DNA of 64,000 nucleotides from a virus. Location of the stretch: the IMG/VR virus record IMGVR_UViG_3300044846_003008; one strand, 5' to 3'. This document shows positions 3,743 to 19,439 of this stretch, one piece after another (position 1 is the first letter of the stretch; every line of letters starts with the position of its first letter). Under the pieces are notes generated by a model that saw only the letters and a list, made by a program, of their open reading frames with translations, was not told the DNA's origin and searched no databases. A program made the position numbers and the translations under genes.

Positions 3743-5233
3743 ATGGATTGTCCTACAGAATATTGCATAAGTAACACTAATATCCCAACATATAATGATA
3801 ACTTTTCATTTAATGGTGATTACGACGGATACTATAGTTGGTCAGGTTATACAAATGGCTATTTTATTTATTTTAAAACAGAAACAACACAATGGTGTTT
3901 ATCCGACACTTTAGGTGGTGATTGTTTATTATCGGGTAAATCACCCTGTACTAGCGAATGTCCTGATTTATTTGGGGCTTACTTTTCAACAGGTATTTGT
4001 GTAACCCCAACACCAACACCAACAAATAATTGTTCTGTTTTAGATTTCGAATCCTTTTTTGATTGTTCACCAATTAGTTACTTAACCCCAACACCTACAT
4101 CAACAACAACCACTACCCCAACCCCAACACCAACATCAACTAACTTTTGTAATCTCTTAAATGTTGATGCCGACATAGTTAGTATATCTTCAACACCAAC
4201 ACCAACCCCGACACCAACACCAACATCGTCAAAACCCGTAACTAGAAATTGTTCATTTGGGGGTGATGTAACATTTAACACCGTTAATGTGAATATTAAT
4301 TGCCCAATCAGTAAACAATTCAGTGATTGTAATGAACCTAATATCATCTACACAACAACCGATGTTTTAACAGTTCAAGGTGGTTCCGAACTTTCACAAT
4401 ATATGGTATTTAACGCATATGTCGATGGTAATGTTAAATGTATCTCATATATTGGCGTTACTTATGACACCATAGGTGGTAATTCAATTGAATTGAATAC
4501 CCCACCATTAGGTTATTCTAATTTAGGTGGTTGTACTTTTTGTCAACCAACAAGGACTCCAACACCTACACCAACAGGAACACCAATTCCAACACCAACA
4601 CCTACACCTACAAGGACCCAAACACCAACACCTACACCTACTAATACTCCAACAAGGACCCAAACACCAACACCTACTAACACTCCAACACCTACTAACA
4701 CTCCAACACCTACTAACACACCTACAAGTACAATCCCATCAATTAATTATTGTGCTAGAAGTCCATTTACAGATGGTATAACAACGAGTTCTGTTAGTTC
4801 AACAGGATGGAAATGGTTTATGTGGGAAAGAGGATATAATAACCACTATTCATATCCTGATGGTGAATTCGACCCTAATACTTTAACTTTATTAAATTTC
4901 CCGTGGTCAAACGATTCCCAATATAGTGCAACTTCGGTTAATTTCACAACAGAGTATATGAACCCTTCATTCTATAATTACTTTGGTTATATGGAAGTTA
5001 TTGTTATGAACTGTTCACAAAATCAATTTTATATAGTCGATAAATGGTTAACACAATACGGACAACCAAGAAGATATTGGCCGTCAAAAACATTAACCGC
5101 ATTACCACCAACAACAGGAACTTACGTTTCAGGTTTGTGGGCAACAACTCAACCATATGATGTGAAAAACCCAAAATACAATACTTGGGGTAATTTCCCA
5201 ACTTGGCCACCTAATAATAGTCCAAACCCTTAA
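3743..5233 (+). CDS. Cys-rich putative virion/fibre protein with Thr/Pro linkers
   Basis: Several PTPTPT linkers separate Cys-rich domains; aromatic-rich C-terminal domain. N-terminal domain is paralogous to the split gene 15443/15044. Confidence 0.75.
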   Translation: MDCPTEYCISNTNIPTYNDNFSFNGDYDGYYSWSGYTNGYFIYFKTETTQWCLSDTLGGDCLLSGKSPCTSECPDLFGAYFSTGICVTPTPTPTNNCSVLDFESFFDCSPISYLTPTPTSTTTTTPTPTPTSTNFCNLLNVDADIVSISSTPTPTPTPTPTSSKPVTRNCSFGGDVTFNTVNVNINCPISKQFSDCNEPNIIYTTTDVLTVQGGSELSQYMVFNAYVDGNVKCISYIGVTYDTIGGNSIELNTPPLGYSNLGGCTFCQPTRTPTPTPTGTPIPTPTPTPTRTQTPTPTPTNTPTRTQTPTPTNTPTPTNTPTPTNTPTSTIPSINYCARSPFTDGITTSSVSSTGWKWFMWERGYNNHYSYPDGEFDPNTLTLLNFPWSNDSQYSATSVNFTTEYMNPSFYNYFGYMEVIVMNCSQNQFYIVDKWLTQYGQPRRYWPSKTLTALPPTTGTYVSGLWATTQPYDVKNPKYNTWGNFPTWPPNNSPNP

Positions 5234-5245
5234 TATTTAAAAATT

Positions 5246-6022
5246 ATGAATTTTACTAATCAACATCAACCTTATATTTTTAAGAACATAAATAATGAAA
5301 TTAACATTATTGTTAGTGAATTTAGTCGTGATGGTATCACCTTTAATTTTGGAAATTATCAATCAACTGAAGATAGATGGAAATTACATCTATTAGACGC
5401 TAATTTCGTTAAAACAGTCATTAACACTCCCAATACTATAATATATGACGATATAACCTATGATGTTATTGCGGAATGTAATGGTTATGTTGAAGACAAT
5501 AAAATAAGTTATGTTATTGGTGGTTTTGACAAAATAAACCAATATTATTTCTATTTTTTGGTTTCAGGCGAATTTAATAATAACACAGTGTCTAACTTAA
5601 ATGTTTTGGGAAGACATAGAACTGGGTTCCACAAACAAAACGATATTTACACAATTAATAAAAATAAAATCACAAGAAATAATTTAGAACTAGACATTAA
5701 TCTAAACCCGTACCTGATTTCAATTGTGAGAATTATTCCAATATACGGTCATAATAAAATGTTAATAACCGGTACTGACCATACAACAAATCACATAACA
5801 TTGTTATATGATTTGGGTAACAATACATTACAAAAAATAACTACCCCAACGACTGACCATATTTATAAATCATCAATATATGATTATGATAATACCAAAT
5901 TAATGGCTTATACCGATAAAATATATTCGACAGATAATTATGAAAAATTACAATTATCACAATCAAGTCATAATTATAACCTAAACATTGAATCAGATTT
6001 CATTCTCAGTGAATTAAATTGA
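5246..6022 (+). CDS. Hypothetical beta-strand-rich protein
   Basis: 258-aa ORF, Asn/Ile/Tyr rich, no recognisable family motif. Confidence 0.75.
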   Translation: MNFTNQHQPYIFKNINNEINIIVSEFSRDGITFNFGNYQSTEDRWKLHLLDANFVKTVINTPNTIIYDDITYDVIAECNGYVEDNKISYVIGGFDKINQYYFYFLVSGEFNNNTVSNLNVLGRHRTGFHKQNDIYTINKNKITRNNLELDINLNPYLISIVRIIPIYGHNKMLITGTDHTTNHITLLYDLGNNTLQKITTPTTDHIYKSSIYDYDNTKLMAYTDKIYSTDNYEKLQLSQSSHNYNLNIESDFILSELN

Positions 6023-6052
6023 TTGACCAAAAGTTCTTATAACTATTATAAT
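6023..6052 (+). promoter_or_regulatory. Sigma70-like promoter
   Basis: TTGACC-N18-TATAAT just upstream of ATG 6068. Confidence 0.4.
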
Positions 6053-6067
6053 AATAAATAAAAAAAT

Positions 6068-8272
6068 ATGCCGTTTTCAGTATCAACGTGTTTAACAGGA
6101 TTAGGGACCGTAACATTAGGTCCCACATTAACAATATATAGTAACCCAATTCCGCCTAATAATCAAGGTGTTTTTGTTGGTAATGTCGCAACATCATTAA
6201 TCACAGGAAATGCTTGTCCTTACACTTTCGTTGTACCTGATGGGACCACAACAGTACGTTTATTCGACCCCGTTACTTTTTGTTATGCCGACATACCTGT
6301 AAGTAATAATAATGTCTGTTCAACGTGTAATTTAACTTTTACCTCGATTAGTAACAACCTTTTATCAACAATAAATGTCGGTTCTTTAGCCGGTACTTGT
6401 GACCCAGCAATCACTGATTATAGAATTAATTGGTATGGACCTAATAATTCAACACTATTAGCTTTTACTTCAGGTGCGGGAACTATATGGCCCGTTAGAG
6501 ACGCCACTCAACCAATAACACCAACATCACTTGATGCTCCATTTTTAGAACCCGGAACTTATGTTTCTAAAATCACTGAAGTTGAGCTAAATAATGTTAG
6601 ATTCTCATATATCGGAGGAACCAATAACGTATTATCACCAAGTCTATTAAATTGTTCATACACCGTATCTGTCTCACCTTATACTTGTCTTAATGGTTCT
6701 CCCCAACCAATTGATGGTTATTATGCACATCAAAAAACCTACATAACCGATGGTTCGTCACCACCAAAATCAGGGAATGCGACAATTTCGTTAGGCGCCG
6801 GAACTCAATCCCTTATTTGGGCATTTTCAGGAGTTTCTATTTATGATACCTTAACGTTAACATTTAACGGTAGTAGTTATTCAAACCCCATAGTTCTTGA
6901 AAGTTTTAGATTAGGCGGTGATGTTTCAAACGATACACGACCAACCACTTTTCCAAAAACATATGGTAATTCAGGTGAATTTAAAAAAATAACAATGTTA
7001 ACAGGTTTAATTGTTAATAACAATGATACAATTGTGATTAATGTAACCCCAAACCCTAATCCCGCATATGCAACATCTTGGAATTTAAAATTTGGTTGCC
7101 GTACTAACACACCTGCAAGTAAAATTTGTTTAGATGATTATAAAAATAAACCTTATAAGATTCAAAAAAGTTCAATCCTTGCAACACCAATTTCTTGTGG
7201 TAATGTCAAAATATATTTTGAAATTAGTGGTTGTAGTACTAATGATAATGCGTTATTCTTCAATTCTGATTTGGTTAAACTAACATCATATATTGATAAT
7301 GGGGTTTACAGTTTTGATAATACTACGAAATTAAGGTCATTTGGGTATGACTATTTTAGGCCACAATTATCCTCAATAAACCAAAACAACTCATCTTTAA
7401 CATCAGAATGTACTAGTTCAGGTGCGAACACCGGAACCATAACAATTAGTAAATCAAATGTTAATGAGTTCACTATTTTTTGTAGTAATCAATCCGACAT
7501 ATTAGCGTTCGAATCATCATTTAACACTAGTAGAAACACCGCAATTAATACCGCAGGTCTTCCCGCATATACCCCGAATGACCCAACAAACATTAATTAT
7601 TATCGTTTTTTCCAACTTGAATATTATACAAACTTAGGGAATTATTCTTGTGGTGATGGGGCTATAGTTACATCGGCGTGGTTACACTGTAATTCAACCT
7701 ACACATTAAACCCAACTGTTGGTGGTTATCTTATGACTATACAGACCCCTTTGATATCATACAATCACCCTTGTACTGGTTGTAATCCTGGTTGTTCTAA
7801 TTTGTTATATTACGTAACACAAGCTAACAATCTTAGAAACTCAACTTTTAATTATTCAAACACGTCAGGTCTAAGAAAAACAAACCCTTTTAGGTTTTCT
7901 ATGGCATATTCCGAAGGTTCAACGCCCGCCATTATGGAAAGAGAATTTATTGGTACTGTTAATGTTAGCCCTAAATATTCGACAAATACCTACGCGTCAA
8001 CAAGTGATGGGTTAAACACTTTATTACCTTCGTTATCCGCAACATCTTGGGATTGGGAAAACCATTTTGCCGAGGTTGACGCGACTACAGTAAACCCATT
8101 TTATAGACAACAACTTTTTAAATATAAAATAGTTGTCGTAACATTCACTCCATTAAGATTCCAACTATTTGGAGCACCAATTACTAATTTTTTAGCAGGT
8201 GCTTATGACCCAACACCTATTTATGACTCTTTATTCCCAAACTCATATAATAGTACTTATATATATGTTTAA
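6068..8272 (+). CDS. Putative virion structural/fibre protein
   Basis: 734 aa, Thr/Ser/Asn/Cys-rich beta-sandwich-like composition; within the plus-strand cassette. Confidence 0.7.
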   Translation: MPFSVSTCLTGLGTVTLGPTLTIYSNPIPPNNQGVFVGNVATSLITGNACPYTFVVPDGTTTVRLFDPVTFCYADIPVSNNNVCSTCNLTFTSISNNLLSTINVGSLAGTCDPAITDYRINWYGPNNSTLLAFTSGAGTIWPVRDATQPITPTSLDAPFLEPGTYVSKITEVELNNVRFSYIGGTNNVLSPSLLNCSYTVSVSPYTCLNGSPQPIDGYYAHQKTYITDGSSPPKSGNATISLGAGTQSLIWAFSGVSIYDTLTLTFNGSSYSNPIVLESFRLGGDVSNDTRPTTFPKTYGNSGEFKKITMLTGLIVNNNDTIVINVTPNPNPAYATSWNLKFGCRTNTPASKICLDDYKNKPYKIQKSSILATPISCGNVKIYFEISGCSTNDNALFFNSDLVKLTSYIDNGVYSFDNTTKLRSFGYDYFRPQLSSINQNNSSLTSECTSSGANTGTITISKSNVNEFTIFCSNQSDILAFESSFNTSRNTAINTAGLPAYTPNDPTNINYYRFFQLEYYTNLGNYSCGDGAIVTSAWLHCNSTYTLNPTVGGYLMTIQTPLISYNHPCTGCNPGCSNLLYYVTQANNLRNSTFNYSNTSGLRKTNPFRFSMAYSEGSTPAIMEREFIGTVNVSPKYSTNTYASTSDGLNTLLPSLSATSWDWENHFAEVDATTVNPFYRQQLFKYKIVVVTFTPLRFQLFGAPITNFLAGAYDPTPIYDSLFPNSYNSTYIYV

Positions 8273-8308: not shown

Positions 8309-10918
8309 ATGACTTCAATTCAAATTACCGAGATAACAGGGTTAGCACTTCCATACAATATATATGTATGTGATGTGTTCGGTAATCAATGTTCTTTAGT
8401 TGCTACAGTTAATACTAATATACCCCCAATCACATCATTATTATTACCCCCACAATTTAACACCGCTCCTGCCGTTGGAGTTAAGGTAGTTTCTCACGAT
8501 TGTACGAGATTTAACATTGTTTATTGTTACTTAGTGTACACAAGAACTCCTACACCAACACCAACAAACACACCTACCCTTACTCCAACACCAACAAACA
8601 CTCCCACACCAACCCCAACTCCAACAGAAACACCAACTCAAACACCTACTGAAACCCCAACTAACACCCCAACGAACACACCTACTCTTACACCTACCCC
8701 AACTGAAACACCAACTAATACACCAACGAACACTCCAACCGAAACCCCAACAAACACACCGACAAACACCCCAACCGAAACCCCAACAAACACACCGACA
8801 AACACCCCAACCGAAACTCCAACTAATACACCAACAAATACGCCAACAAATACGCCGACGAATACCCCAACAAATACACCAACAAGTACTGTTACTCCAA
8901 CTAATACACCAACTAACACCCCAACCGAAACTCCAACTAATACACCAACTAATACCCCAACAAATACCCCAACCGAAACTCCAACAAATACCCCAACAAG
9001 CACCGTAACACCAACAAATACCCCAACTAACACTCCAACTAATACTCCAACTAATACACCAACTAATACACCAACAAATACTCCAACAAACACTCCAACA
9101 AACACACCAACAAGTACTGTTACTCCGACGAATACACCAACTAATACACCAACTAATACACCAACGAACACTCCAACTAACACACCTACTGAAACACCAA
9201 CTAATACACCTACGAACACGCCTACGAATACCCCGACAAGTACTGTTACTCCGACTAACACCCCAACAAATACGCCTACTAATACCCCAACTCAAACACC
9301 AACTAATACCCCAACGAACACTCCAACAAATACCCCAACAAACACACCAACAAGTACTGTTACTCCTACTAACACACCAACTAATACACCGACTAATACT
9401 CCGACAGAAACCCCAACTAATACACCGACTAATACACCTACAAATACACCAACAAATACACCTACAAATACTCCAACAAATACTGTCACACCAACAAATA
9501 CACCAACGAACACACCTACTAACACCCCAACGAACACACCTACGAATACCCCGACAAATACACCAACAAATACACCAACGAACACGCCAACTAATACCCC
9601 AACTAATACGCCAACAAGTACTGTCACTCCGACTAATACGCCAACTAATACCCCAACTAATACGCCAACAAACACTCCAACAAGTACTGTCACACCAACG
9701 AATACTCCGACTAACACACCAACTAACACTCCAACAAGTACTGTCACACCAACTAATACCCCAACTAATACGCCAACAAACACTCCAACAAGTACTGTCA
9801 CACCAACGAATACTCCGACTAACACACCAACTAACACTCCAACAAGTACTGTCACACCAACTAATACCCCAACTAATACGCCAACAAGTACTGTCACACC
9901 AACGAATACTCCGACTAACACACCAACTAACACTCCAACAAGTACTGTCACACCAACTAATACCCCAACTAATACGCCAACAAGTACTGTCACACCAACG
10001 AATACTCCGACTAACACACCAACTAACACTCCAACAAGTACTGTTACCCCAACGAATACTCCGACTAACACACCAACTAACACTCCAACAAGTACTGTTA
10101 CCCCAACGAATACTCCGACTAATACTCCGACTAATACACCCACAAATACTCCAACAAGTACTGTTACCCCAACAAATACTCCGACTAACACACCTACAAA
10201 TACACCAACGAATACACCTACGAACACACCAACAAATACGCCAACGAATACACCTACGAACACACCATCTAACACCCAAACCCCTACGAATACCCCTACG
10301 AACACCCCAACGAATACTCCAACAAATACCCCAACAAGTACAGTTACCCCAACAAGTACAGTTACCCCAACAAATACTCCGACTAACACACCTACAAATA
10401 CACCAACGAACACACCAACAAATACGCCAACGAATACACCTACGAACACACCATCTAACACCCAAACCCCTACGAACACCCCGACTAACACACCAACAAT
10501 TACTCCGACTAATACACCAACTAACACCCCAACAAATTCACAGACCCCAACGAAGACCTCAACACCAACACCAACCATCACCCCAACTAACACGCCAACA
10601 CCAACAATTACTCCGACAATTACACCAACAATTACTCCAACTAATACACCATCACCAACTCAAACACCAACAAATACCCCGACTAATACACCAACCAACA
10701 CACCTAGTCAAACCCCAACAAATAGTGTCACACCAACCCCAACCGTGACACCAACAACATCAGTTACCCCAACTAACACTCCATCATACACTCCAAGTAT
10801 GACACCATCATACACACCATCACCAACCCCAACAACATTAACAGGTAATTTCTTATTATTACAAACAGGTGATTATATCATATTACAAGACGGAACAGGA
10901 TTTATTGAATTACAATAA
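8309..10918 (+). CDS. Mucin-like Thr/Pro-rich stalk protein (putative virion appendage)
   Basis: ~75-aa Cys-containing N-domain, ~760 aa of (TPTN)n/TPTSTV repeats, and a short C-terminal motif [16 protein letters not shown]. Confidence 0.85.
8546..10836 (+). repeat. Coding tandem repeat: 12-nt unit ACN-CCN-ACN-AAY with higher-order 96-108 nt units
   Basis: An exact higher-order unit starts at 9681, 9789, 9885 and 9981 (periods 108, 96, 96). Confidence 0.95.
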
Positions 10919-11618: not shown

Positions 11619-13913
11619 TTAAAAATCGAATTTTATAAAAAATTGCTGAATCCCTTGTCTTAAAACAGGTGATTGTAGCTTAGATATAAGCATAAGGTTT
11701 TTTTCATCATCGTAAAGCCCAATTTCAGTAATATATGGTTTTGTTGTCGTATTCCAAGTTGGATTAGTACTAGTCAAGAATTCAGTATTTGATAAATTAA
11801 CTTTATATCTCATTTCATAGATAGTTGCTTGAATATCTGTTTCTAATGAACCATAAAAATAATATTCATCACCAAAGTTAAGTTGAACCGATGTATCACC
11901 TTCAGGTGTTAATGTAACATAGTCGTTTAAATCATATATAGGGGCGTTATCATACAAATCTTTAGTTATAACAAAGGTATTACCCGTTAACGCATTCTCA
12001 GTAATATAATTATCAATAGTACTACCACTTATTTGGTCCGTCATATCAATTATTCTCCAATCATCAGAATTAGGACGTGAACCTGTTACTACTTTTTGAC
12101 ATAAAATTTCGATTTTTTCAGCAAAAAATCCTTGGTTATACGAATCATTATATAACCCCAAACAAGATAAATTACCCCCGAATCTAACCCCAACATTTTC
12201 CGAATTAGACGGATTACAATCATTTGGTCCCGTAATCTTTGAGTAGTAATTACAATGTAGTGAGTTCGTAAACGCACTTGTATTTGTAAATCTATAAGTC
12301 ACAAACATCGTCTCATTTGAACTTGTTAGAACCCCTTCACTACTACCAATAGTGTTACAAGTGTTAGGTGTTGATAAAAACAATTTAGTTGCCGGTAACG
12401 TCCAATTTCGATTAGATTTATAAGACATTGCTGCGATTATTTCCTCATCATCAATAACAATAATTTTATCATCAGGGAAAACTTTACCAATTCTACTTGG
12501 GTAACCACTAACCGTCGGATTAGTATCCCATAAATTATAGTATCTCAACCCAGGTGAATTCATATCTTCGTTCTTAGTTGATTGTAGATAATGAACTTTA
12601 AATAAATAATCATCATTAGGTAAATCATCAAATCCAGGTGGGTCAACCCAAAATGTTTCACCATTACAACATTCAGGATTTTTATGCCACATTAACCAAG
12701 GAATGTGTAATCTAAAGTTTCTCGCTTGTCCTGTTGTATCATAAGGAGCCAATGGGTCGTATGGCTCGAACGCAAATTTCTCACCATAAAACAAATCAAT
12801 AGTTTGATTAGTATAGTGAATAATCGCAATTGCTTTTTGTTCTTCAGGTTCAACTTTAACCACCTCATCAAATGAGTTATAATAGTAAGTATCTGTTGTC
12901 TCGGCACTTAAAGAATTACTTATAAAAAACGTTTGACCACTATTTGACATATAACCCAAATATTCTTTAGACCCTAAATAATTAACAGAACCAAATTGGG
13001 TGTAATCTTTATACACCGCCGAATCTAACCCCGCTAAATTTTCAGACCAAGGAATATTCATATTCCATATCTTAACATCAAATTCGTCTTGATTACAAAC
13101 CGATTCAAAATTAATCACATCATCACTATAATGATTCAACGGTGTAATACTATCATAAATCTCCGTCATCGTTTTCGGGTAAAAAAGAATACGAGCGTAC
13201 TGATTTGAGAACGTAATGTTTGAAAAATCAGGTGTTGGCCTATCTAAGGTCAATACATCATTACAAAAATCAACAACCCTATACGTTAAAACCGAATAAC
13301 AAGACGACATAGACATAACACACCCACTTAACGCCGCAGTTTCACTAGTAGTACAATTACAATTATCATCACCCAATGCGTCATAATATATCGTAACAAC
13401 ATCACCTGAAATAGGTACTAAAAGTTCATTTTCGTTACATACTGACGAAATCACAGGAACACTATTAGTCCCAACAAATTCACTCATATCAACTTTATAA
13501 TTTGATGAAATCACATAATCATTACCCGTGAAAGCACTCCAAGTTGTTGGTAAAATACTGGTATCACCGCTAAAAAACCCTCTGATTGCCGCAGTATTAT
13601 AAATCGGACTAACAACGGAATCCATATATGGCACGCCATAAGTATTACCACCATTACCATCAACGTAATATGGATATTTCACATTTTGTTTATTCGATTC
13701 AGGAGTTCCACTCGAATTTTGTGCGTTGAATCCCGGTTTTAAAATCATCGTATTTGATTGTGGGTAAGTCGTTGGTAAAGTATTATACAACACCTCACTA
13801 TCACCCACTTGAAAATAACTTACATTAAATTTACCTTGTGATAATTTTTGTCGAGCAGCGTCCGTAAATATTGTATTAACTAAACCTGACGTATTTTTTA
13901 ATATATAACCCAT
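11619..13913 (-). CDS. Baseplate/tail-collar fibre attachment-type structural protein
   Basis: N-terminal FTDAARQKLSQG...FQVGD and C-terminal ITEIGLYDDEKNL resemble the tail-collar fibre (DUF3751-like) signature. Confidence 0.6.
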   Translation of the reverse strand: MGYILKNTSGLVNTIFTDAARQKLSQGKFNVSYFQVGDSEVLYNTLPTTYPQSNTMILKPGFNAQNSSGTPESNKQNVKYPYYVDGNGGNTYGVPYMDSVVSPIYNTAAIRGFFSGDTSILPTTWSAFTGNDYVISSNYKVDMSEFVGTNSVPVISSVCNENELLVPISGDVVTIYYDALGDDNCNCTTSETAALSGCVMSMSSCYSVLTYRVVDFCNDVLTLDRPTPDFSNITFSNQYARILFYPKTMTEIYDSITPLNHYSDDVINFESVCNQDEFDVKIWNMNIPWSENLAGLDSAVYKDYTQFGSVNYLGSKEYLGYMSNSGQTFFISNSLSAETTDTYYYNSFDEVVKVEPEEQKAIAIIHYTNQTIDLFYGEKFAFEPYDPLAPYDTTGQARNFRLHIPWLMWHKNPECCNGETFWVDPPGFDDLPNDDYLFKVHYLQSTKNEDMNSPGLRYYNLWDTNPTVSGYPSRIGKVFPDDKIIVIDDEEIIAAMSYKSNRNWTLPATKLFLSTPNTCNTIGSSEGVLTSSNETMFVTYRFTNTSAFTNSLHCNYYSKITGPNDCNPSNSENVGVRFGGNLSCLGLYNDSYNQGFFAEKIEILCQKVVTGSRPNSDDWRIIDMTDQISGSTIDNYITENALTGNTFVITKDLYDNAPIYDLNDYVTLTPEGDTSVQLNFGDEYYFYGSLETDIQATIYEMRYKVNLSNTEFLTSTNPTWNTTTKPYITEIGLYDDEKNLMLISKLQSPVLRQGIQQFFIKFDF

Positions 13914-13934
13914 TTTATTATTTTTTTATTATTT

Positions 13935-15044
13935 TTATTCATATAAACTTTTTAACCCCATCACAGTACAACAATTACAACCTTTAATAGTACCGTTTGT
14001 AATATATGACGATAAATAATTAAAATACCCATTACAACATCTTGAGTATATTGAAGATGCTGTTTGACCATAAGTCAATGGTCCCAACTCATCACCAATA
14101 TCATTAACTACTAATTGAGCCGGTGGTGTGTTATTACAAGTTAATTGGAATTGTTTTATCGTTTTAACCGAATACACATCATTTTTAGTTATTTTTAACC
14201 CTGAATATGTTGTCGAATAATCGGTAATATAAATAGTAAGACCTTGACATCCAGCACTCTGATTTGGTAAGGTACTATCAAGAGGATTATCAGACCCTGT
14301 TATTGTCTGACTATTCTTAATAACTTGAGGAGTAAATGTTGAACTAGCTGAATTAATGTAAGGTGTTCTAACAAATCTCGATGCTAGTACCAAATCAAAA
14401 GTCAATTCAACACCGGCCGGTAATGGTGGAAGTACTTGAATTTCATAGGTGGTTTCCACAGTGTTCACACCAGTTGTTACTTCAGATATTGTCTCTAAAT
14501 TAATATAATATTCGGTTGATGTTGTTTTTTGAGACATAACAAATGTTTTAGTAACTGTTGTCCCTTCACTATCTTTAACAATTACCGAGTAATTACCCCC
14601 ACATAAATTCGATTTAATAGGGAAATTCTCATAAGTAACACCATTGTTATATGAATATTGATATGGTGGTACACCTCCTGTTGCCGTCACACTTAATGAA
14701 CCGTCACAAATACAACCCGGATTAGTAACATTACCAATCACACTAAGAGAGTTCGAAGGAACACAAAGACCCGAATTCGCGGCAACAGTGTAGGCCTTTC
14801 CTAATACAGTCCAATTGTTATTTATCGGAGGGTATGCAGGATTGGTATTAACCACTTGAATAGTACCTAACGTATCACCCGATAATTTCCAAGCGTTCAA
14901 TGTCGTATCCCAAATTATCTTAACCGTCGAATCGTCAGATAACCAAGAGTTTTTACCATTATAAGTCCCATCAGGATTAAAATGATAACTAAATTTATTC
15001 CCCGTGAAAAAAGTTGCGTAATCTTCTAAATCAAATAAATACAT
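13935..15044 (-). CDS. SprB-repeat fibre-like protein, C-terminal part of a split gene, with MYLFDLEDY leader
   Basis: CDGSLSVTATGGVPPYQYS...NLCGGNYSVIVKDS SprB-type repeat; in frame with 15060..15443. Confidence 0.75.
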   Translation of the reverse strand: MYLFDLEDYATFFTGNKFSYHFNPDGTYNGKNSWLSDDSTVKIIWDTTLNAWKLSGDTLGTIQVVNTNPAYPPINNNWTVLGKAYTVAANSGLCVPSNSLSVIGNVTNPGCICDGSLSVTATGGVPPYQYSYNNGVTYENFPIKSNLCGGNYSVIVKDSEGTTVTKTFVMSQKTTSTEYYINLETISEVTTGVNTVETTYEIQVLPPLPAGVELTFDLVLASRFVRTPYINSASSTFTPQVIKNSQTITGSDNPLDSTLPNQSAGCQGLTIYITDYSTTYSGLKITKNDVYSVKTIKQFQLTCNNTPPAQLVVNDIGDELGPLTYGQTASSIYSRCCNGYFNYLSSYITNGTIKGCNCCTVMGLKSLYE

Positions 15045-15092
15045 AATTTTTAAATGTTATTAACTTCTGTTATAAAAATAATCCCATTGATT
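15003..15092 (-). other. Split cassette A (90 nt, in frame, inserted at CCT^GGG)
   Basis: Encodes NQWDYFYNRS, TAA, TAACATTTAAAAATT, MYLFDLEDYATFFT; flanked by FTP and GNKF. Confidence 0.65.
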
Positions 15093-15443
15093 AGGTGTAA
15101 ATGTTAAACAGAAATCGTATAATGGTAATGGTGTCGGTGTAACCACAGGTGTCGGTGTAACTATAGGTGTCGGACCTAATAAGTTACAAGTACTTGTTAT
15201 CAAGTAATCACCATTAGAATCCGTCACTGTTGCAACATAAGAACCTGTACTCAAATTATTAATACTTTGACCAATACTCCCATTGTTCCATTGTATCAAA
15301 TATGGCGGAGTACCTCCTGATATAAATAAACTAGCAATTCCGTCAGATGCCGTAGAACTTGACGGATTCGTAGAATTACAAGATACGTACATAGGGAATA
15401 TTGTTATCACCCCACACTCATTTCTTTCTGTTGGTATTGGCAT
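15060..15443 (-). CDS. SprB-repeat protein, N-terminal part of a split gene
   Basis: DGIASLFISGGTPPYLIQWNNG...NLSTGSYVATVTDS SprB repeat followed by a PTP linker. Confidence 0.75.
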   Translation of the reverse strand: MPIPTERNECGVITIFPMYVSCNSTNPSSSTASDGIASLFISGGTPPYLIQWNNGSIGQSINNLSTGSYVATVTDSNGDYLITSTCNLLGPTPIVTPTPVVTPTPLPLYDFCLTFTPNQWDYFYNRS

Positions 15444-15452
15444 ATTATGTTT

Positions 15453-16445
15453 TTATAATAAATAATCGTCACTCTCGTTTTTTATCATAGATTCCATAAC
15501 TTCGATGTATTTTTTTGTCGCACTATTGTCATCTATATAATCAAAAATCGTATCGTTTAGTTTTAATAATTCAATTGGGTTTAGGGTAATGAAATCCCCC
15601 TTATAGAATTTATCGTGTTTTAAATTAGCGGTCACTCCAGCCATATGTAAAATCACTTTCTCATTATATCGGTCCATAGTGTCCGTACCCCAAGAAAAAC
15701 TAAGTTTATCAGTCACCCTCGTTTCTTTCCCCAAATACCATAAATTCCATAATACCGCCCACATATCCGATGTCCATATTTGAAGTCCATTCTGAATAGG
15801 GTAAGTTTTATGAAACATAATTAACATTTGATAAAGATTTTCACTATCTTTATATACTTTATCCCAAAACGTATAATCAGTATTTTTAATTAGATATTGA
15901 GCACCACCTGAATTACTTTGATTTTTTTTAACGGTTTCAACATCAATACCGATTACACCACACATTGAAGTTAATAATAGGTCTTTAGGTAATATATTAT
16001 GTTTATCATCATACCTATCACAACACTCTTTAATATAGTCATAACCGATGTATGAGGTCGTATCGGACAAATAACATACATCACCATCAATTAACGAATT
16101 AAAGTCGGGTAAAACCCTAAAAATGATATCGGAATCGTGGTAAAAATAACATTTACCAAATTGGGGATTTTCTTTTAACCATTTTGATAAGATTAATGGT
16201 CTTAAAGTTGGGATATATTCTTTATGTTCTCGATTATCAACATAATGATGGACATTTACTCCATAGTGTTTTAATTCTAAAGATTTCTTCGAAGGTTCGT
16301 CACCATCAACAATCACAAATAATACGTGAATTTGGTTTGGGTTAATACCTTTCTCAATGAAATTGTGGACATAAACTTTAGTTTGCCAATGGAAATACGG
16401 TACATCAGGTTGTGCCGACACAAATATTAAATCATCAAACTCCAT
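15453..16445 (-). CDS. GT-A fold glycosyltransferase, HPAT/SRGT1 (GT95/GT96)-like peptide O-glycosyltransferase; start MEFDDL at 16445
   Basis: Ordered motifs YFHWQT, YIPTLRP..W, FYHDSDIIF (DxD), GGAQYLI, WTSDMW and ILH parallel the SRGT1-type motifs YFDWQT, YxxxNKP..W, LDADMI, WxSEMY and LLH. Confidence 0.65.
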   Translation of the reverse strand: MEFDDLIFVSAQPDVPYFHWQTKVYVHNFIEKGINPNQIHVLFVIVDGDEPSKKSLELKHYGVNVHHYVDNREHKEYIPTLRPLILSKWLKENPQFGKCYFYHDSDIIFRVLPDFNSLIDGDVCYLSDTTSYIGYDYIKECCDRYDDKHNILPKDLLLTSMCGVIGIDVETVKKNQSNSGGAQYLIKNTDYTFWDKVYKDSENLYQMLIMFHKTYPIQNGLQIWTSDMWAVLWNLWYLGKETRVTDKLSFSWGTDTMDRYNEKVILHMAGVTANLKHDKFYKGDFITLNPIELLKLNDTIFDYIDDNSATKKYIEVMESMIKNESDDYLL

Positions 16446-16502
16446 TATCTTTTTAATTAAAAATATTAAAGAAGTCAATATAATAAATGGTAGAAATGAA
16501 TA

Positions 16503-16904
16503 TTACTGAACTAACCCATCAACTAAATAAGTCAACTCCTCAACATCACATAATAATGTTTGTTGAGCGGAAATAAAATCATTATATATGGTAACATCAA
16601 ACACACCATCAGTCGAACATTCATCACCCATCATATACCAAAAATCCGTGGACGCCACATTAAATGCGGTTATATCGTTTTGAACAACGGCCCATTTCGC
16701 CAAAATATCGTCTTTACATTCACCGTCCTCTAAACAAATAGTACCACACACATACCATTCATTTAACTCTTTAAAGTACGCGTCACTCGTTGCTCGTGAG
16801 GTTGACGCCATATCGGACCATCTTGTGTCACAAATAGGTATTTCTTCATATTGATTCCCAATTATCTTGGAAACATAATAGTCAGCCAAATCAAAAAGAT
16901 ACAT
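16503..16904 (-). CDS. Acidic Cys-containing protein with MYLFDLADY leader; probable C-terminal part of a split gene
   Basis: In frame with 16917..19439 across a 12-nt spacer; shares its N-terminal peptide with 15044. Confidence 0.7.
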   Translation of the reverse strand: MYLFDLADYYVSKIIGNQYEEIPICDTRWSDMASTSRATSDAYFKELNEWYVCGTICLEDGECKDDILAKWAVVQNDITAFNVASTDFWYMMGDECSTDGVFDVTIYNDFISAQQTLLCDVEELTYLVDGLVQ

Positions 16905-16943
16905 AATGTTTAAATATTAAAAGAATTTATTTATTTGGAATGA
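16860..16943 (-). other. Split cassette B (84 nt, in frame, inserted at CCT^GGG)
   Basis: Encodes SFQINKFF, TAA, TATTTAAACATT, MYLFDLADYYVSKII; flanked by FIP and GNQY. Confidence 0.6.
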
Positions 16944-19439
16944 AGGTATGAAATTATTAGCCCAAGTAAATGGTGCCGTTGCATACTCCAACGCAAGTTT
17001 AGCGGTATAACAATCATCCCTAATATCCCTATTATCCGCAGCAATATCTTCAGGGTCAGTTACAGGAGGGTCTTGATTTTCCCAATAAGAGTCCAAACAA
17101 CCTTTAGTTACGTTCACAATAACCGGAACGACTCTCCAAGTTTGTTCCAAATTACTACCAGGCCCATACCCACCATCGTATAATTCTAATATTTGAACAC
17201 TTGGGTCTAATACTGATTGAACCTCAAGAGTTTCAGTTAATTTATAATCATCACAAACACCCGTTTGTGGGTAATCGCAAGATAACGAACAAGAAACACA
17301 AGAAATGTCATAATGTATAATTAAATTAACCAAAATGTCAGAATCAAGTAATGTTACTTCCGAATTACAATCAGTACTAATAGTTATCTTATTTGTTGAG
17401 TTATTAATTACTACATTACCAATCCCATCATAAGATAACAATAAATTTCGTATTGTTGTTGCCCATAATGTGTCACTTGGGACTTCAAATAACGTATTCC
17501 CCGTATAAAATGAATTTGAAGATATCACCCCGTCAACACTTACAGACGCCTCAAATACCGCCTCATTTAATATACAATTATTATCACCGAGGGTTAAGTC
17601 ACTAAACCCTTCATTTAACATTTGTAATTGACCCTTTTTAATTAAATCGCCGGTATTATTAAACGTATCCTCAGTAAAGTTATAAATTTCATATGACACC
17701 GAACAATTAGTACCTTCAAGTATTATTGTTTTCTCATTAACACAATCATTATCGTCGGTAACTTTAATAGTATAAGTACCTACCGATAAATTTGTCACTA
17801 ATTGACCTGTTTGTTCCCCAACATTTTCACTCCATTCATAAGTGAATGGTGGTTGACCACTAGTAATGAATATTTGAATCTGTCCATTGTTTGTTCCCGT
17901 AGGGTTTTGTGGTGTAACAATAAAATCAACACCTACCGAATCATCAACAAATAACGTTGTTGTTTGTTTACAAGGAACACTTGTATCTGTCACACTTAAA
18001 GTATAACTACCATTATCAACACCTTGATATATTTTAGTTCGTGAATTAGATTGTTCCGGACCCCCATTAAATTCATATAAGAAAGGTCCCGTACCACCAA
18101 CCACAGTTACTTCAACAACACCATTTGCAATACCACAAGTAGTTCCTGTAACATCAACATCAAATGTGAATAAAACCTCATTTAATATTTCATAATCTTT
18201 AGAATAACTACAACCACTATCATCAGTAATTGTTAAATTATAAATCCCTGAGGCTAAATTAGTAAATGGGTAACTAGTTGATGTTGTACTAATCTCTATC
18301 GGATTACCATTTGGTGGTGTTAAAACATACACATATGGTAATGACCCGTTCGAAATAGACGGAATAATTTCACCTAAATTATTACCACATTTTGAATTTA
18401 TAGTATTAACGGATATTAAATTAAATGATGATGGTGTTAATAACGTCACCCCACCCGTAAAACTACATAAACCAGAATCCTGAACGTAATAATTAAATAC
18501 CCCCGCAGATAATCCTGTAAATTCATAAAAATTATCAAATGTGACGTTAAACGTTCCGTTAGACCCTGAAAAATAATAAGGTGCAGTACCACCTGATATA
18601 ATCAAATACACAGTTCCGTTACTTCCAAAACAAGCCGGCGGTGTAACCAATACACCCGATTGCCCAACAGTTGGAACTTTAACAACATTCGCCGATTTAT
18701 TCACAACACATCCCGTTCTATCACTCACCGTGACACTATACGTACCCGCAATCAAATCCGTGATTGAGTCAGTTGTACTACCATTACTCCATAAATAAGT
18801 GTAAGGTGGATTTCCCGTCAATCCTGTAACAAACAATTTACCTGAACTAACACTACATCCTGCATCATTAACAACATACACCCCAAAATCTAATTGGGTT
18901 GAATCCTGAACGATTACACTAGTTGTTACACCCGTACAACCCCCACCATCTGTCGCCTCAACATAATACGTACCAGCACTTAAACTATTAAATACAACAC
19001 CCGATGGTGTTATCGAATTCATAGTATTCGCCGAAGTAATATAACCTAACGTATTATGGTATAAAAAATAAGTATTACGACCATAATCATATTCAGTTCT
19101 AGCCGTTATTGAACCATTATCTAAATTACATAACGTATTCTCAACACTATCAACCGAAACACACACACCACTCGATATGTATATTGAGACAGGCTGAACA
19201 TTATTTGTCGGGTCAGTACAACTATCAATTATATTAAACGTATAAGTACCAGCACTTAGACCCATTTCTTCATATGAAGTCACACCAGCACCTAAAGGAA
19301 TTACATCCGTAAAGGGGGTTAACCATTGAATGGTATAATCAGGAGCTGACCCATTAATTAATATTTCAAACGCTCCCTCGTCAAGATTCATACAGTCACC
19401 TGTCAACCCCGCAATTGTATATGTTAAAACACAAGCCAT
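16917..19439 (-). CDS. Multi-SprB-repeat fibre/adhesin-like virion protein
   Basis: About 7 repeats of the G.I.....GG..PY.Y.W.NG....L.AG.Y...V.D..GC pattern. Confidence 0.8.
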   Translation of the reverse strand: MACVLTYTIAGLTGDCMNLDEGAFEILINGSAPDYTIQWLTPFTDVIPLGAGVTSYEEMGLSAGTYTFNIIDSCTDPTNNVQPVSIYISSGVCVSVDSVENTLCNLDNGSITARTEYDYGRNTYFLYHNTLGYITSANTMNSITPSGVVFNSLSAGTYYVEATDGGGCTGVTTSVIVQDSTQLDFGVYVVNDAGCSVSSGKLFVTGLTGNPPYTYLWSNGSTTDSITDLIAGTYSVTVSDRTGCVVNKSANVVKVPTVGQSGVLVTPPACFGSNGTVYLIISGGTAPYYFSGSNGTFNVTFDNFYEFTGLSAGVFNYYVQDSGLCSFTGGVTLLTPSSFNLISVNTINSKCGNNLGEIIPSISNGSLPYVYVLTPPNGNPIEISTTSTSYPFTNLASGIYNLTITDDSGCSYSKDYEILNEVLFTFDVDVTGTTCGIANGVVEVTVVGGTGPFLYEFNGGPEQSNSRTKIYQGVDNGSYTLSVTDTSVPCKQTTTLFVDDSVGVDFIVTPQNPTGTNNGQIQIFITSGQPPFTYEWSENVGEQTGQLVTNLSVGTYTIKVTDDNDCVNEKTIILEGTNCSVSYEIYNFTEDTFNNTGDLIKKGQLQMLNEGFSDLTLGDNNCILNEAVFEASVSVDGVISSNSFYTGNTLFEVPSDTLWATTIRNLLLSYDGIGNVVINNSTNKITISTDCNSEVTLLDSDILVNLIIHYDISCVSCSLSCDYPQTGVCDDYKLTETLEVQSVLDPSVQILELYDGGYGPGSNLEQTWRVVPVIVNVTKGCLDSYWENQDPPVTDPEDIAADNRDIRDDCYTAKLALEYATAPFTWANNFIPSFQINKFF

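Follow-up and report, generated by a model that had tools for sequence, protein, structure and literature searches.

In chaperone-usher pili, the missing last strand of an immunoglobulin (Ig) fold is supplied by an N-terminal extension, via a chaperone intermediate. In phage T4, translation of gene 60 bypasses part of the message by means of matched take-off and landing codons, a stop codon right after the take-off codon and a stable take-off hairpin. The T4 proteins gp34 to gp37, like adaptor and receptor-binding pairs, are proximal and distal pieces from neighbouring genes, held together non-covalently. The NrdA-a and NrdA-b 'genes in pieces' of Aeromonas phage Aeh1 have tails made at the break that are essential for assembly, and a homing endonuclease gene, mobE, lies in the gap between the nrdA pieces (Crona et al. 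2011, PMC3045599). Fractured genes with split inteins, as outlined by Dassa et al. 2009 (PMC2677866), are divided into two open reading frames (ORFs) whose products are reunited after translation. We analysed two adjacent ORFs, named ORF1 and ORF2 here, in IMG/VR virus record IMGVR_UViG_3300044846_003008, a stretch of 64,000 nucleotides (nt) referred to below as the window. The pair is probably the outcome of a fibre gene fission inside a small barrel domain, with products that reassemble when ORF1 donates a strand to ORF2.

Both ORFs and the genes around them are encoded on the minus strand (see Table 1). ORF1 ends in ...PLYDFCLTFTP/NQWDYFYNRS-stop (the slash marks the edge of a 90-nt segment between the two parts of the domain), and ORF2 starts with MYLFDLEDYATFFT/GNKFSYHFNPDG... 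and ends in KSLYE. Among 65 homologues of ORF2, about 45 were of the split form, with 362-408 amino acids (aa) and 39-95% identity, and about a dozen more distant ones were fused. The latter (444-499 aa) contained an ORF1-like N-terminus, a linker, the motif Y[DN][FL]C... and the ORF2 body in one chain, i.e., they were colinear with ORF1 plus ORF2. In 80 viral contigs, intact copies of the domain all started at positions 2-5 of the domain hidden Markov model (HMM, see below) and split ORF2s all at positions 15-22. The AlphaFold2 (AF2) model of the intact domain, with a predicted local distance difference test score (pLDDT) of 85.1, showed eight strands, the first of which (E9-13) surrounds a Cys; in this model the ORF1 piece YDFCLTF corresponds to strand 1 of the eight-stranded barrel. 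A preliminary description of the locus had placed the split inside a domain, separating its first strand from the rest, and the fused homologues, which hold this strand in cis, agree with it, as does the modelled strand. That the split is an artefact of assembly or sequencing, or the gene a pseudogene in decay, deserves hardly any credence: nothing beyond the in-frame stop speaks for it, the same split was found across dozens of independent contigs (metagenome and viral, 42-95% identity), and both ORFs were conserved.

We call the strand at the end of ORF1 the plug and the incomplete barrel of ORF2 the socket. ORF1 homologues numbered 19, of 102-131 aa. The plug motif D-F-C-L-x-F was present in 21 ORF1s with 60-98% identity to that of the window; C112 was invariant, D110, F111, L113 and F115 were conserved in at least 90%, and the plug codons changed synonymously while the residues stayed (16 distinct DNA versions). 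Beyond the last conserved Phe of the plug, the remaining 0-14 residues were hypervariable. Judged from these sequences, the plug is under purifying selection after the split. C94 of ORF2 was invariant in 43 split forms, the heads of which (their first residues, ahead of the socket) hold no Cys. Both Cys were also invariant in 44 intact domains, where the Cys closing the domain (C91 in the first sequence) falls at the ORF2 C94 position on the HMM. A plug-bearing ORF was located 4-46 nt upstream in 22 of the 22 split loci with upstream sequence, and forms beginning at the domain have a strand 1 of their own. The two pieces (21 ORF1s and 43 ORF2s) were both conserved and adjacent, as in genes in pieces, and according to the HMM and the models ORF2 is without strand 1 of the fold, as an acceptor in donor-strand complementation lacks a strand.

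When ORF2 was modelled alone, residues 1-17 showed pLDDT below 50 and no strand, and the last strand of the barrel was weakened (block pLDDT 64 and 59). The preliminary description had considered that the leader of ORF2 might substitute for the missing strand; in this model the head is disordered and strandless and does not take the place of strand 1. A specific candidate of this kind, DLEDYATFFTG in the head as a copy of PLYDFCLTFTPG, was rejected, as the HMM does not align it and AF2 leaves the head disordered. Proteins opening with an ORF2-type head in other loci were absent from the matches of the domain HMM.

A complex of ORF2 residues 1-100 with ORF1 residues 88-127 was modelled in three runs with three controls, supplying our own alignments. 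The interaction score (ipSAE, interaction prediction score from aligned errors) was 0.61 in 3/3 runs and 0.00 in the best control, a result that supports binding and stops short of showing it; 58 of 80 solved complexes had attained this mark, and so had 2 of 110 mismatched pairs, counts that are rough here since our own alignments were used. The runs shared at least 94% of their contacts, and partner pLDDT was at least 58. The modelled interface comprised residues 106 and 108-118 of ORF1 and residues 12-13, 15-24, 32, 34, 64, 71-72, 74, 78, 80 and 84-95 of ORF2, and the plug sat between strand 2 and the last strand of ORF2, i.e., in the position of strand 1. The tail of ORF1 (119-127) and the head of ORF2 (1-11) were outside the confident interface. 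In these models the pieces are compatible, and ORF1 and ORF2 are predicted to bind each other in vivo.

In comparison with the other split loci, four (L005, L110, L112 and L113) had D or E at plug position 114 exactly where socket position 19 is K, i.e., CLDF or CLEF together with DK[FI]HF, and both positions are in contact in the complex model. This covariation probably goes back to a single event in evolution, too few to be counted, and we take it only as a lead.

In the AF2 model without strand 1, the block of ORF2 residues 21-80 reached a pLDDT of about 78-90, which would also suit a self-sufficient ORF2. The terminal strand of ORF1 would then be a leftover, or serve another partner, and there would be no shared barrel; the head and tail motifs, which occur on unrelated proteins (see below), are possibly tags for such partners. 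We regard this as unlikely. One would expect a leftover to decay; the plug, however, is one of the best-kept stretches of ORF1, beside a hypervariable tail; C94 is invariant without a partner in cis, and plug ORFs always adjoin split ORF2s. The loss of confidence in the last barrel strand of the ORF2-alone model and the strand-1 position of the plug in the complex model also argue for a shared barrel.

We propose that the gene of a fibre-like or decoration-like virion protein was broken in the loop after strand 1 of the eight-stranded barrel. The fission and the conservation are shown by the sequences, and the compatibility of both pieces by the model. ORF1 would have kept the module at the N-terminus, the Pro/Thr linker and, as its C-terminal plug, strand 1. 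ORF2 would have kept strands 2-8 as the socket together with the remaining protein, and the two would be translated separately. The plug would insert between strand 2 and the last strand of ORF2, closing the barrel in a manner like donor-strand complementation. The joint invariance of C112 and C94 suggests a disulfide, which may lock the pair outside the cell, and the ORF1/ORF2 protein is presumably located in the virion. The 90 nt would represent nothing but the stop, spacer and start of the junction plus short terminal extensions. The preliminary description had held that the halves must be rejoined or reassociate: plug conservation and the complex model favour reassociation, and the part concerning rejoining at the nucleic acid or translation level was not supported (see below).

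Several points weigh against strand donation. It leaves the conserved tail and head peptides without explanation. The halves of split domains tend to pass complex tests because the model recognises the whole fold, so that a pass shows compatibility and not binding. The confident contacts listed for C112 were with ORF2 residues 20-22 and 89-90, not with 94. The fold was assigned from predicted models only. Finally, the ORF2 tree needs 2-3 changes between the split and fused states, so that recombination, a re-fusion or multiple fissions have to be assumed; in an approximately unbiased (AU) test, a single split clade was not rejected (p 0.41).

According to the preliminary description, removal of the 90-nt segment exactly restores the register of an intact paralogous domain at the N-terminus of the window ORF 3743..5233. 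Anchored on the Cys, the ORF1-ORF2 join aligned without gaps to residues 8-59 of that protein (BLOSUM62 score 50, 14/52 identical). Alternative joins that also remove 90 nt scored 45-52 and any other removal length at most 18, and 0 of 20000 shuffles reached the score of the proposed join; the continuation WKLSGDTLG versus WCLSDTLG was present as well. The HMM, built from 16 fused homologues with no window sequence included, matched only two of the 82 window ORFs scanned, ORF2 and 3743..5233. ORF2 scored 82.6 bits over positions 16-92 of 93, the strand-1 positions being missing, and residues 7-56 of 3743..5233 scored 21.2 bits (E 3e-4, Z=1e5), with Cys8 aligned to the HMM Cys. With hhalign, the 44 intact domains matched residues 1-100 of 3743..5233 with a probability of 92.5% and E 5e-7 over 41 columns. 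Score, shuffles and two independent profile tests thus bear out the gapless alignment, and the similarity to 3743..5233 is significant in profile alignment.

The same register had been taken as independent support for the length of 90 nt, a view that was not borne out. The spacing from Cys to Trp was 23-34 residues in the 44 intact domains; the joined value of 25 residues was found in nine of them, and any removal of about 63-96 nt would give a natural-looking spacing. Since the loop varies by 11 residues in intact domains, a length of exactly 90 is weakly supported by the sequences, and the equal register with 3743..5233 is partly a coincidence that does not fix the length of the insert. Nor could the exact join point be fixed, as cuts after ORF1 residues 114-121 all scored at least 45.

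The segment, named cassette A in the preliminary description, did not behave as a discrete element, its 51-nt core being single-copy in the window with no repeat family. A repeated promoter or mobile repeat was rejected as a candidate, as the core is single-copy and the 64 kb contain only one real copy of the tail DNA motif. In a consensus scan of the junction, promoter and terminator sites were no more frequent than in shuffles. Rfam gave no match at E up to 1 in 13800..17200, the fold of the 131-nt junction RNA was no better than shuffles (z -0.49), and no ORF, i.e., no homing endonuclease gene, was found inside the 4-46 nt gaps of the window or of any split locus examined. The relatives were cut in the same loop with other junctions: their spacers measured 4, 8, 11, 17, 20, 21, 23, 28, 38-40 and 46 nt, mostly out of frame, their tails included SRDSWDYFYNRS, IIN, ITNNGGYQIREQ, IDTGGYY, RK and MQVKSLYE, and their heads MYLFDLE.., MENNQP.., MFFEGQ.. 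and MAQSNS... These unrelated junctions rule out conserved readthrough, bypass or splicing.

Rejoining of the ORFs into one 472-aa protein before or during translation, whether by a small intron, a bypass of the T4 gene 60 type or readthrough, therefore appears highly improbable. The ORFs are in the same frame in the window, the 90-nt removal gives a natural spacing, and an AAT codon stands at both edges (15092..15090 and 14999..14997), readable as a take-off/landing pair. The candidate take-off codon is, however, followed by CAA instead of a stop, the Rfam and folding results give no sign of an intron or a hairpin, and two in-frame TAA codons would block readthrough. In addition to the varying and mostly out-of-frame spacers with unrelated tails and heads of the relatives, the tail residues of ORF1 were kept through codon changes (e.g., AGA AGT versus AGG TCT), and the head of ORF2 is a genuine N-terminus of other proteins.

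The head and part of the spacer are common to ORF2 and a neighbouring 133-aa gene (about 70% over about 45 nt, comprising spacer and first nine codons). This resemblance might indicate that the 90 nt are one copy of a mobile or portable cassette that splits fibre genes, with a second copy at 16917/16904, and the recurrence of the tail on many unrelated proteins, and of the head on others, would fit such a cassette. We consider it very unlikely, as the search for a repeated DNA element was negative, the tail and the head turn up independently, and the split relatives have quite different junctions. In one relative with fused ORF1-ORF2 (L010), the homologue of the 133-aa gene (E 1e-12) stands alone with the same head and the same gene order, indicating that the head predates the split and that the boundary looks like an ordinary gene boundary. 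The likeness can be explained by a one-off copy: most simply, the ORF2 head would be a copied gene-start module, for which the 133-aa gene is the likely source.

In the fibre cluster, the head MYFFD[LFI][ED]DY stands at the start of six or more distinct proteins (133-357 aa); a Cys frequently comes next, and the spacers upstream of the head are similar and A/T-rich. The head may serve as a portable module for gene start or initiation, or as a docking peptide at the N-terminus. The tail YFYNRS-stop ends unrelated proteins of 145, 173, 213, 338, 449, 754 and 1155 aa in viral contigs of related phages (L081-L101), always 11-23 nt before the next start codon. The idea that the ORF1 tail copies strand 2 (WDYFYN versus FSYHFN) was rejected, since it amounts to no more than a resemblance and unrelated proteins end in this tail too.

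Two alternative C-terminal tags were found in the family, (W.)YFYNRS-stop (Y) and (T)KSLYE-stop (K). The same tag was never present on both partners in 16 ORF1/ORF2 pairs, and fused forms had one tag of either kind or neither. ORF1 with Y was paired with ORF2 with K nine times (window, L001, L004/L108/L109, L102, L103 and L111/L125, of which several are closely related), K with Y once (L120), another ending with Y five times and another ending with K three times. A fossil tail was observed in L014 (5903-5935), where an upstream 425-aa ORF ends in ...SGCP, TGA and the in-frame DYFYNRS-stop; its homologues in L081 and L090 read ...SGCSWDYFYNRS-stop, i.e., a Trp codon TGG became TGA in L014.

The domain was carried by 292 among 1.84 billion cluster representatives, mostly complete and internal; as the domain is in general intact in cis, the split state is the derived one. 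One homologue (P0043) has an N-domain nearly identical to that of the window, by eye, yet it is grouped with fused forms on the tree and may be a mosaic. Near-identical ORF2 bodies carried different heads (P0009 and P0010 versus P0012). A 129-aa protein on a 647-nt metagenome contig (P0087) combines an unrelated N-module with the linker, plug and tail of the window ORF1 (90% identity there), which, from the sequences compared, looks like module swapping upstream of the plug. The differing heads and this N-module indicate that the junction is a recombination point.

A broader reading, which we hold to be speculative and rather doubtful, is that the joint is a general plug-and-socket way to build and reshuffle virion appendages, perhaps locked by disulfides. 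One beta strand on a flexible Pro/Thr tether would close the barrel of another protein, and the head and tail peptides that recur would act as additional docking strands and not be scars. The varied N-modules on the same plug (P0087), the head swaps on near-identical ORF2 bodies and the partners that never share a tag would fit it.

Table 1 Coordinates of the features described in the text
Feature	Coordinates	Strand	Description
ORF1	15443..15060	minus	127 aa; N-terminal RNEC motif, SprB/Ig-like repeat, Pro/Thr linker, plug strand, 10-aa tail
Plug	15119..15093	minus	ORF1 Y109-P117, YDFCLTFTP, predicted barrel strand 1; Cys112 codon 15110..15108
90-nt segment (cassette A)	15092..15003	minus	In frame; exactly 90 nt; composed of the next four rows
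Tail codons	15092..15063	minus	ORF1 N118-S127
Stop codon	15062..15060	minus	TAA
Spacer between ORF1 and ORF2	15059..15045	minus	15 nt; opens with a second in-frame TAA (15059..15057)
Head codons	15044..15003	minus	ORF2 M1-T14
ORF2	15044..13935	minus	369 aa; incomplete barrel, SprB/Ig-like repeat, long-stranded beta-sandwich, Cys-rich C-terminal domain
Socket	15002..14760	minus	ORF2 residues 15-95, predicted barrel strands 2-8; Cys94 codon 14765..14763
Intact paralogous barrel	3761..4000	plus	Residues 7-86 at the N-terminus of 3743..5233, then Pro/Thr linker; second half (57-86) assigned by eye only, HMM match residues 7-56
133-aa gene	16904..16503	minus	Same head, MYLFDLADYY; similar spacer before the start
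341-aa gene	15453-16478		Between the 133-aa gene and ORF1
869-aa ORF	8309-10918		Repeat-rich
Head sites, window	16878-16904		MYFFD[LFI][ED]DY
Head sites, other loci	L001 4145; L004 2806, 3515; L005 3889; L010 4182; L012 2760, 3491		MYFFD[LFI][ED]DY
C-terminal tags, window	15063-15086; 13938-13952		(W.)YFYNRS-stop; (T)KSLYE-stop; also in L001-L005 and L102-L120
Diverged barrel sub-family	L010 11192-10353; L015 12438-10456; L037 12608-10155; L036 12940-10325; L013 8566-6323	minus	YC[IL][ST]NT...YDDNY

The window corresponds to a contractile-tailed phage (myovirus) and encodes a tail sheath, baseplate hub and wedge, NrdA/B and a DnaB-like helicase. The deposited phage collection gave no match to the locus in nucleotide or protein searches. 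The 341-aa gene matched phrog_4417 (E 4.7e-67) and was syntenic in most loci, immediately upstream of the fused or split gene. The 869-aa ORF consists mostly of Thr/Pro-rich repeats with a 12-nt period (more than 100 overlapping copies). ORF1 and ORF2 scored 22.9 and 25.2 bits with the SprB family PF13573, for which the Pfam gathering cut-off is 28; the neighbour 19439..16917 scored 63.4, and many homologues have a precomputed PF13573 match. The AF2 model of ORF2 (mean pLDDT 80.4) had its best Foldseek matches with Ig-like surface, adhesin and capsid-decoration proteins (GhpA, phage N4 capsid, SiiE and Hoc).

The barrel itself was nearest in shape to small closed up-and-down barrels, with a best VIA-align Z of 5.8, to designed barrels. 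Pfam gave no match at E<=1, the PDB searched by sequence nothing better than E 0.19, and Foldseek no match at E<=0.001, i.e., there was no convincing fold identification. As modelled, the small barrel is an unannotated domain, with no Pfam or PDB relative found by sequence. In three loci (L063, L069 and L070; ORFs 4249/4288..6723) it occurs as a tandem pair in one protein of 811-824 aa, at residues about 223-315 and 320-418. Related phages repeatedly encode, in other proteins, a diverged sub-family like that of 3743..5233, in many cases following a Pro/Thr linker (see Table 1).

The locus offers a natural, well-populated case of a domain cut after its first strand and kept as two genes, with intact versions in related phages. 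With dozens of split and a dozen fused homologues, it is a clean system for studying how gene fission is tolerated, and for asking whether fission helps phages to exchange the outer, host-facing part of a fibre. For annotation, ORF1 and ORF2 should be called separate genes of one functional unit, neither a pseudogene nor an intron-containing gene, and the small barrel domain, so far unannotated, is defined with about 290 cluster representatives.

Compared with the systems described above, the likeness to T4 gene 60, a short untranslated gap in a coding sequence, would apply only if the ORFs were rejoined; here neither a stop behind the take-off codon nor a hairpin is present, and the gap is coded as two protein ends. 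Unlike split inteins, the junction peptides, of 10 and 14 aa, are variable and far too short for intein halves, and Pfam finds no intein family. As in multi-protein fibres, the boundary is an exchange point, with heads and ORF1 modules that differ between near-identical ORF2 bodies; unlike in T4 gp34 to gp37, the joint crosses one small domain and intact single-gene versions still exist. In the models, an incomplete beta fold is completed by the terminal strand of another chain, as in the donor-strand complementation of pili, although in our case the added strand is the first one of a small barrel and comes from a C-terminal extension, and no sequence or fold relation was found. By analogy, the closest precedent is Aeh1 NrdA-a/NrdA-b, also a phage gene in two adjacent ORFs with new C- and N-terminal tails; its products reassemble without RNA or protein splicing, as those of ORF1 and ORF2 would. 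Unlike in Aeh1, the gap of 15 nt holds no gene, the tails are variable and dispensable among relatives and lie outside the modelled interface, and the predicted glue is the native strand of the split domain.

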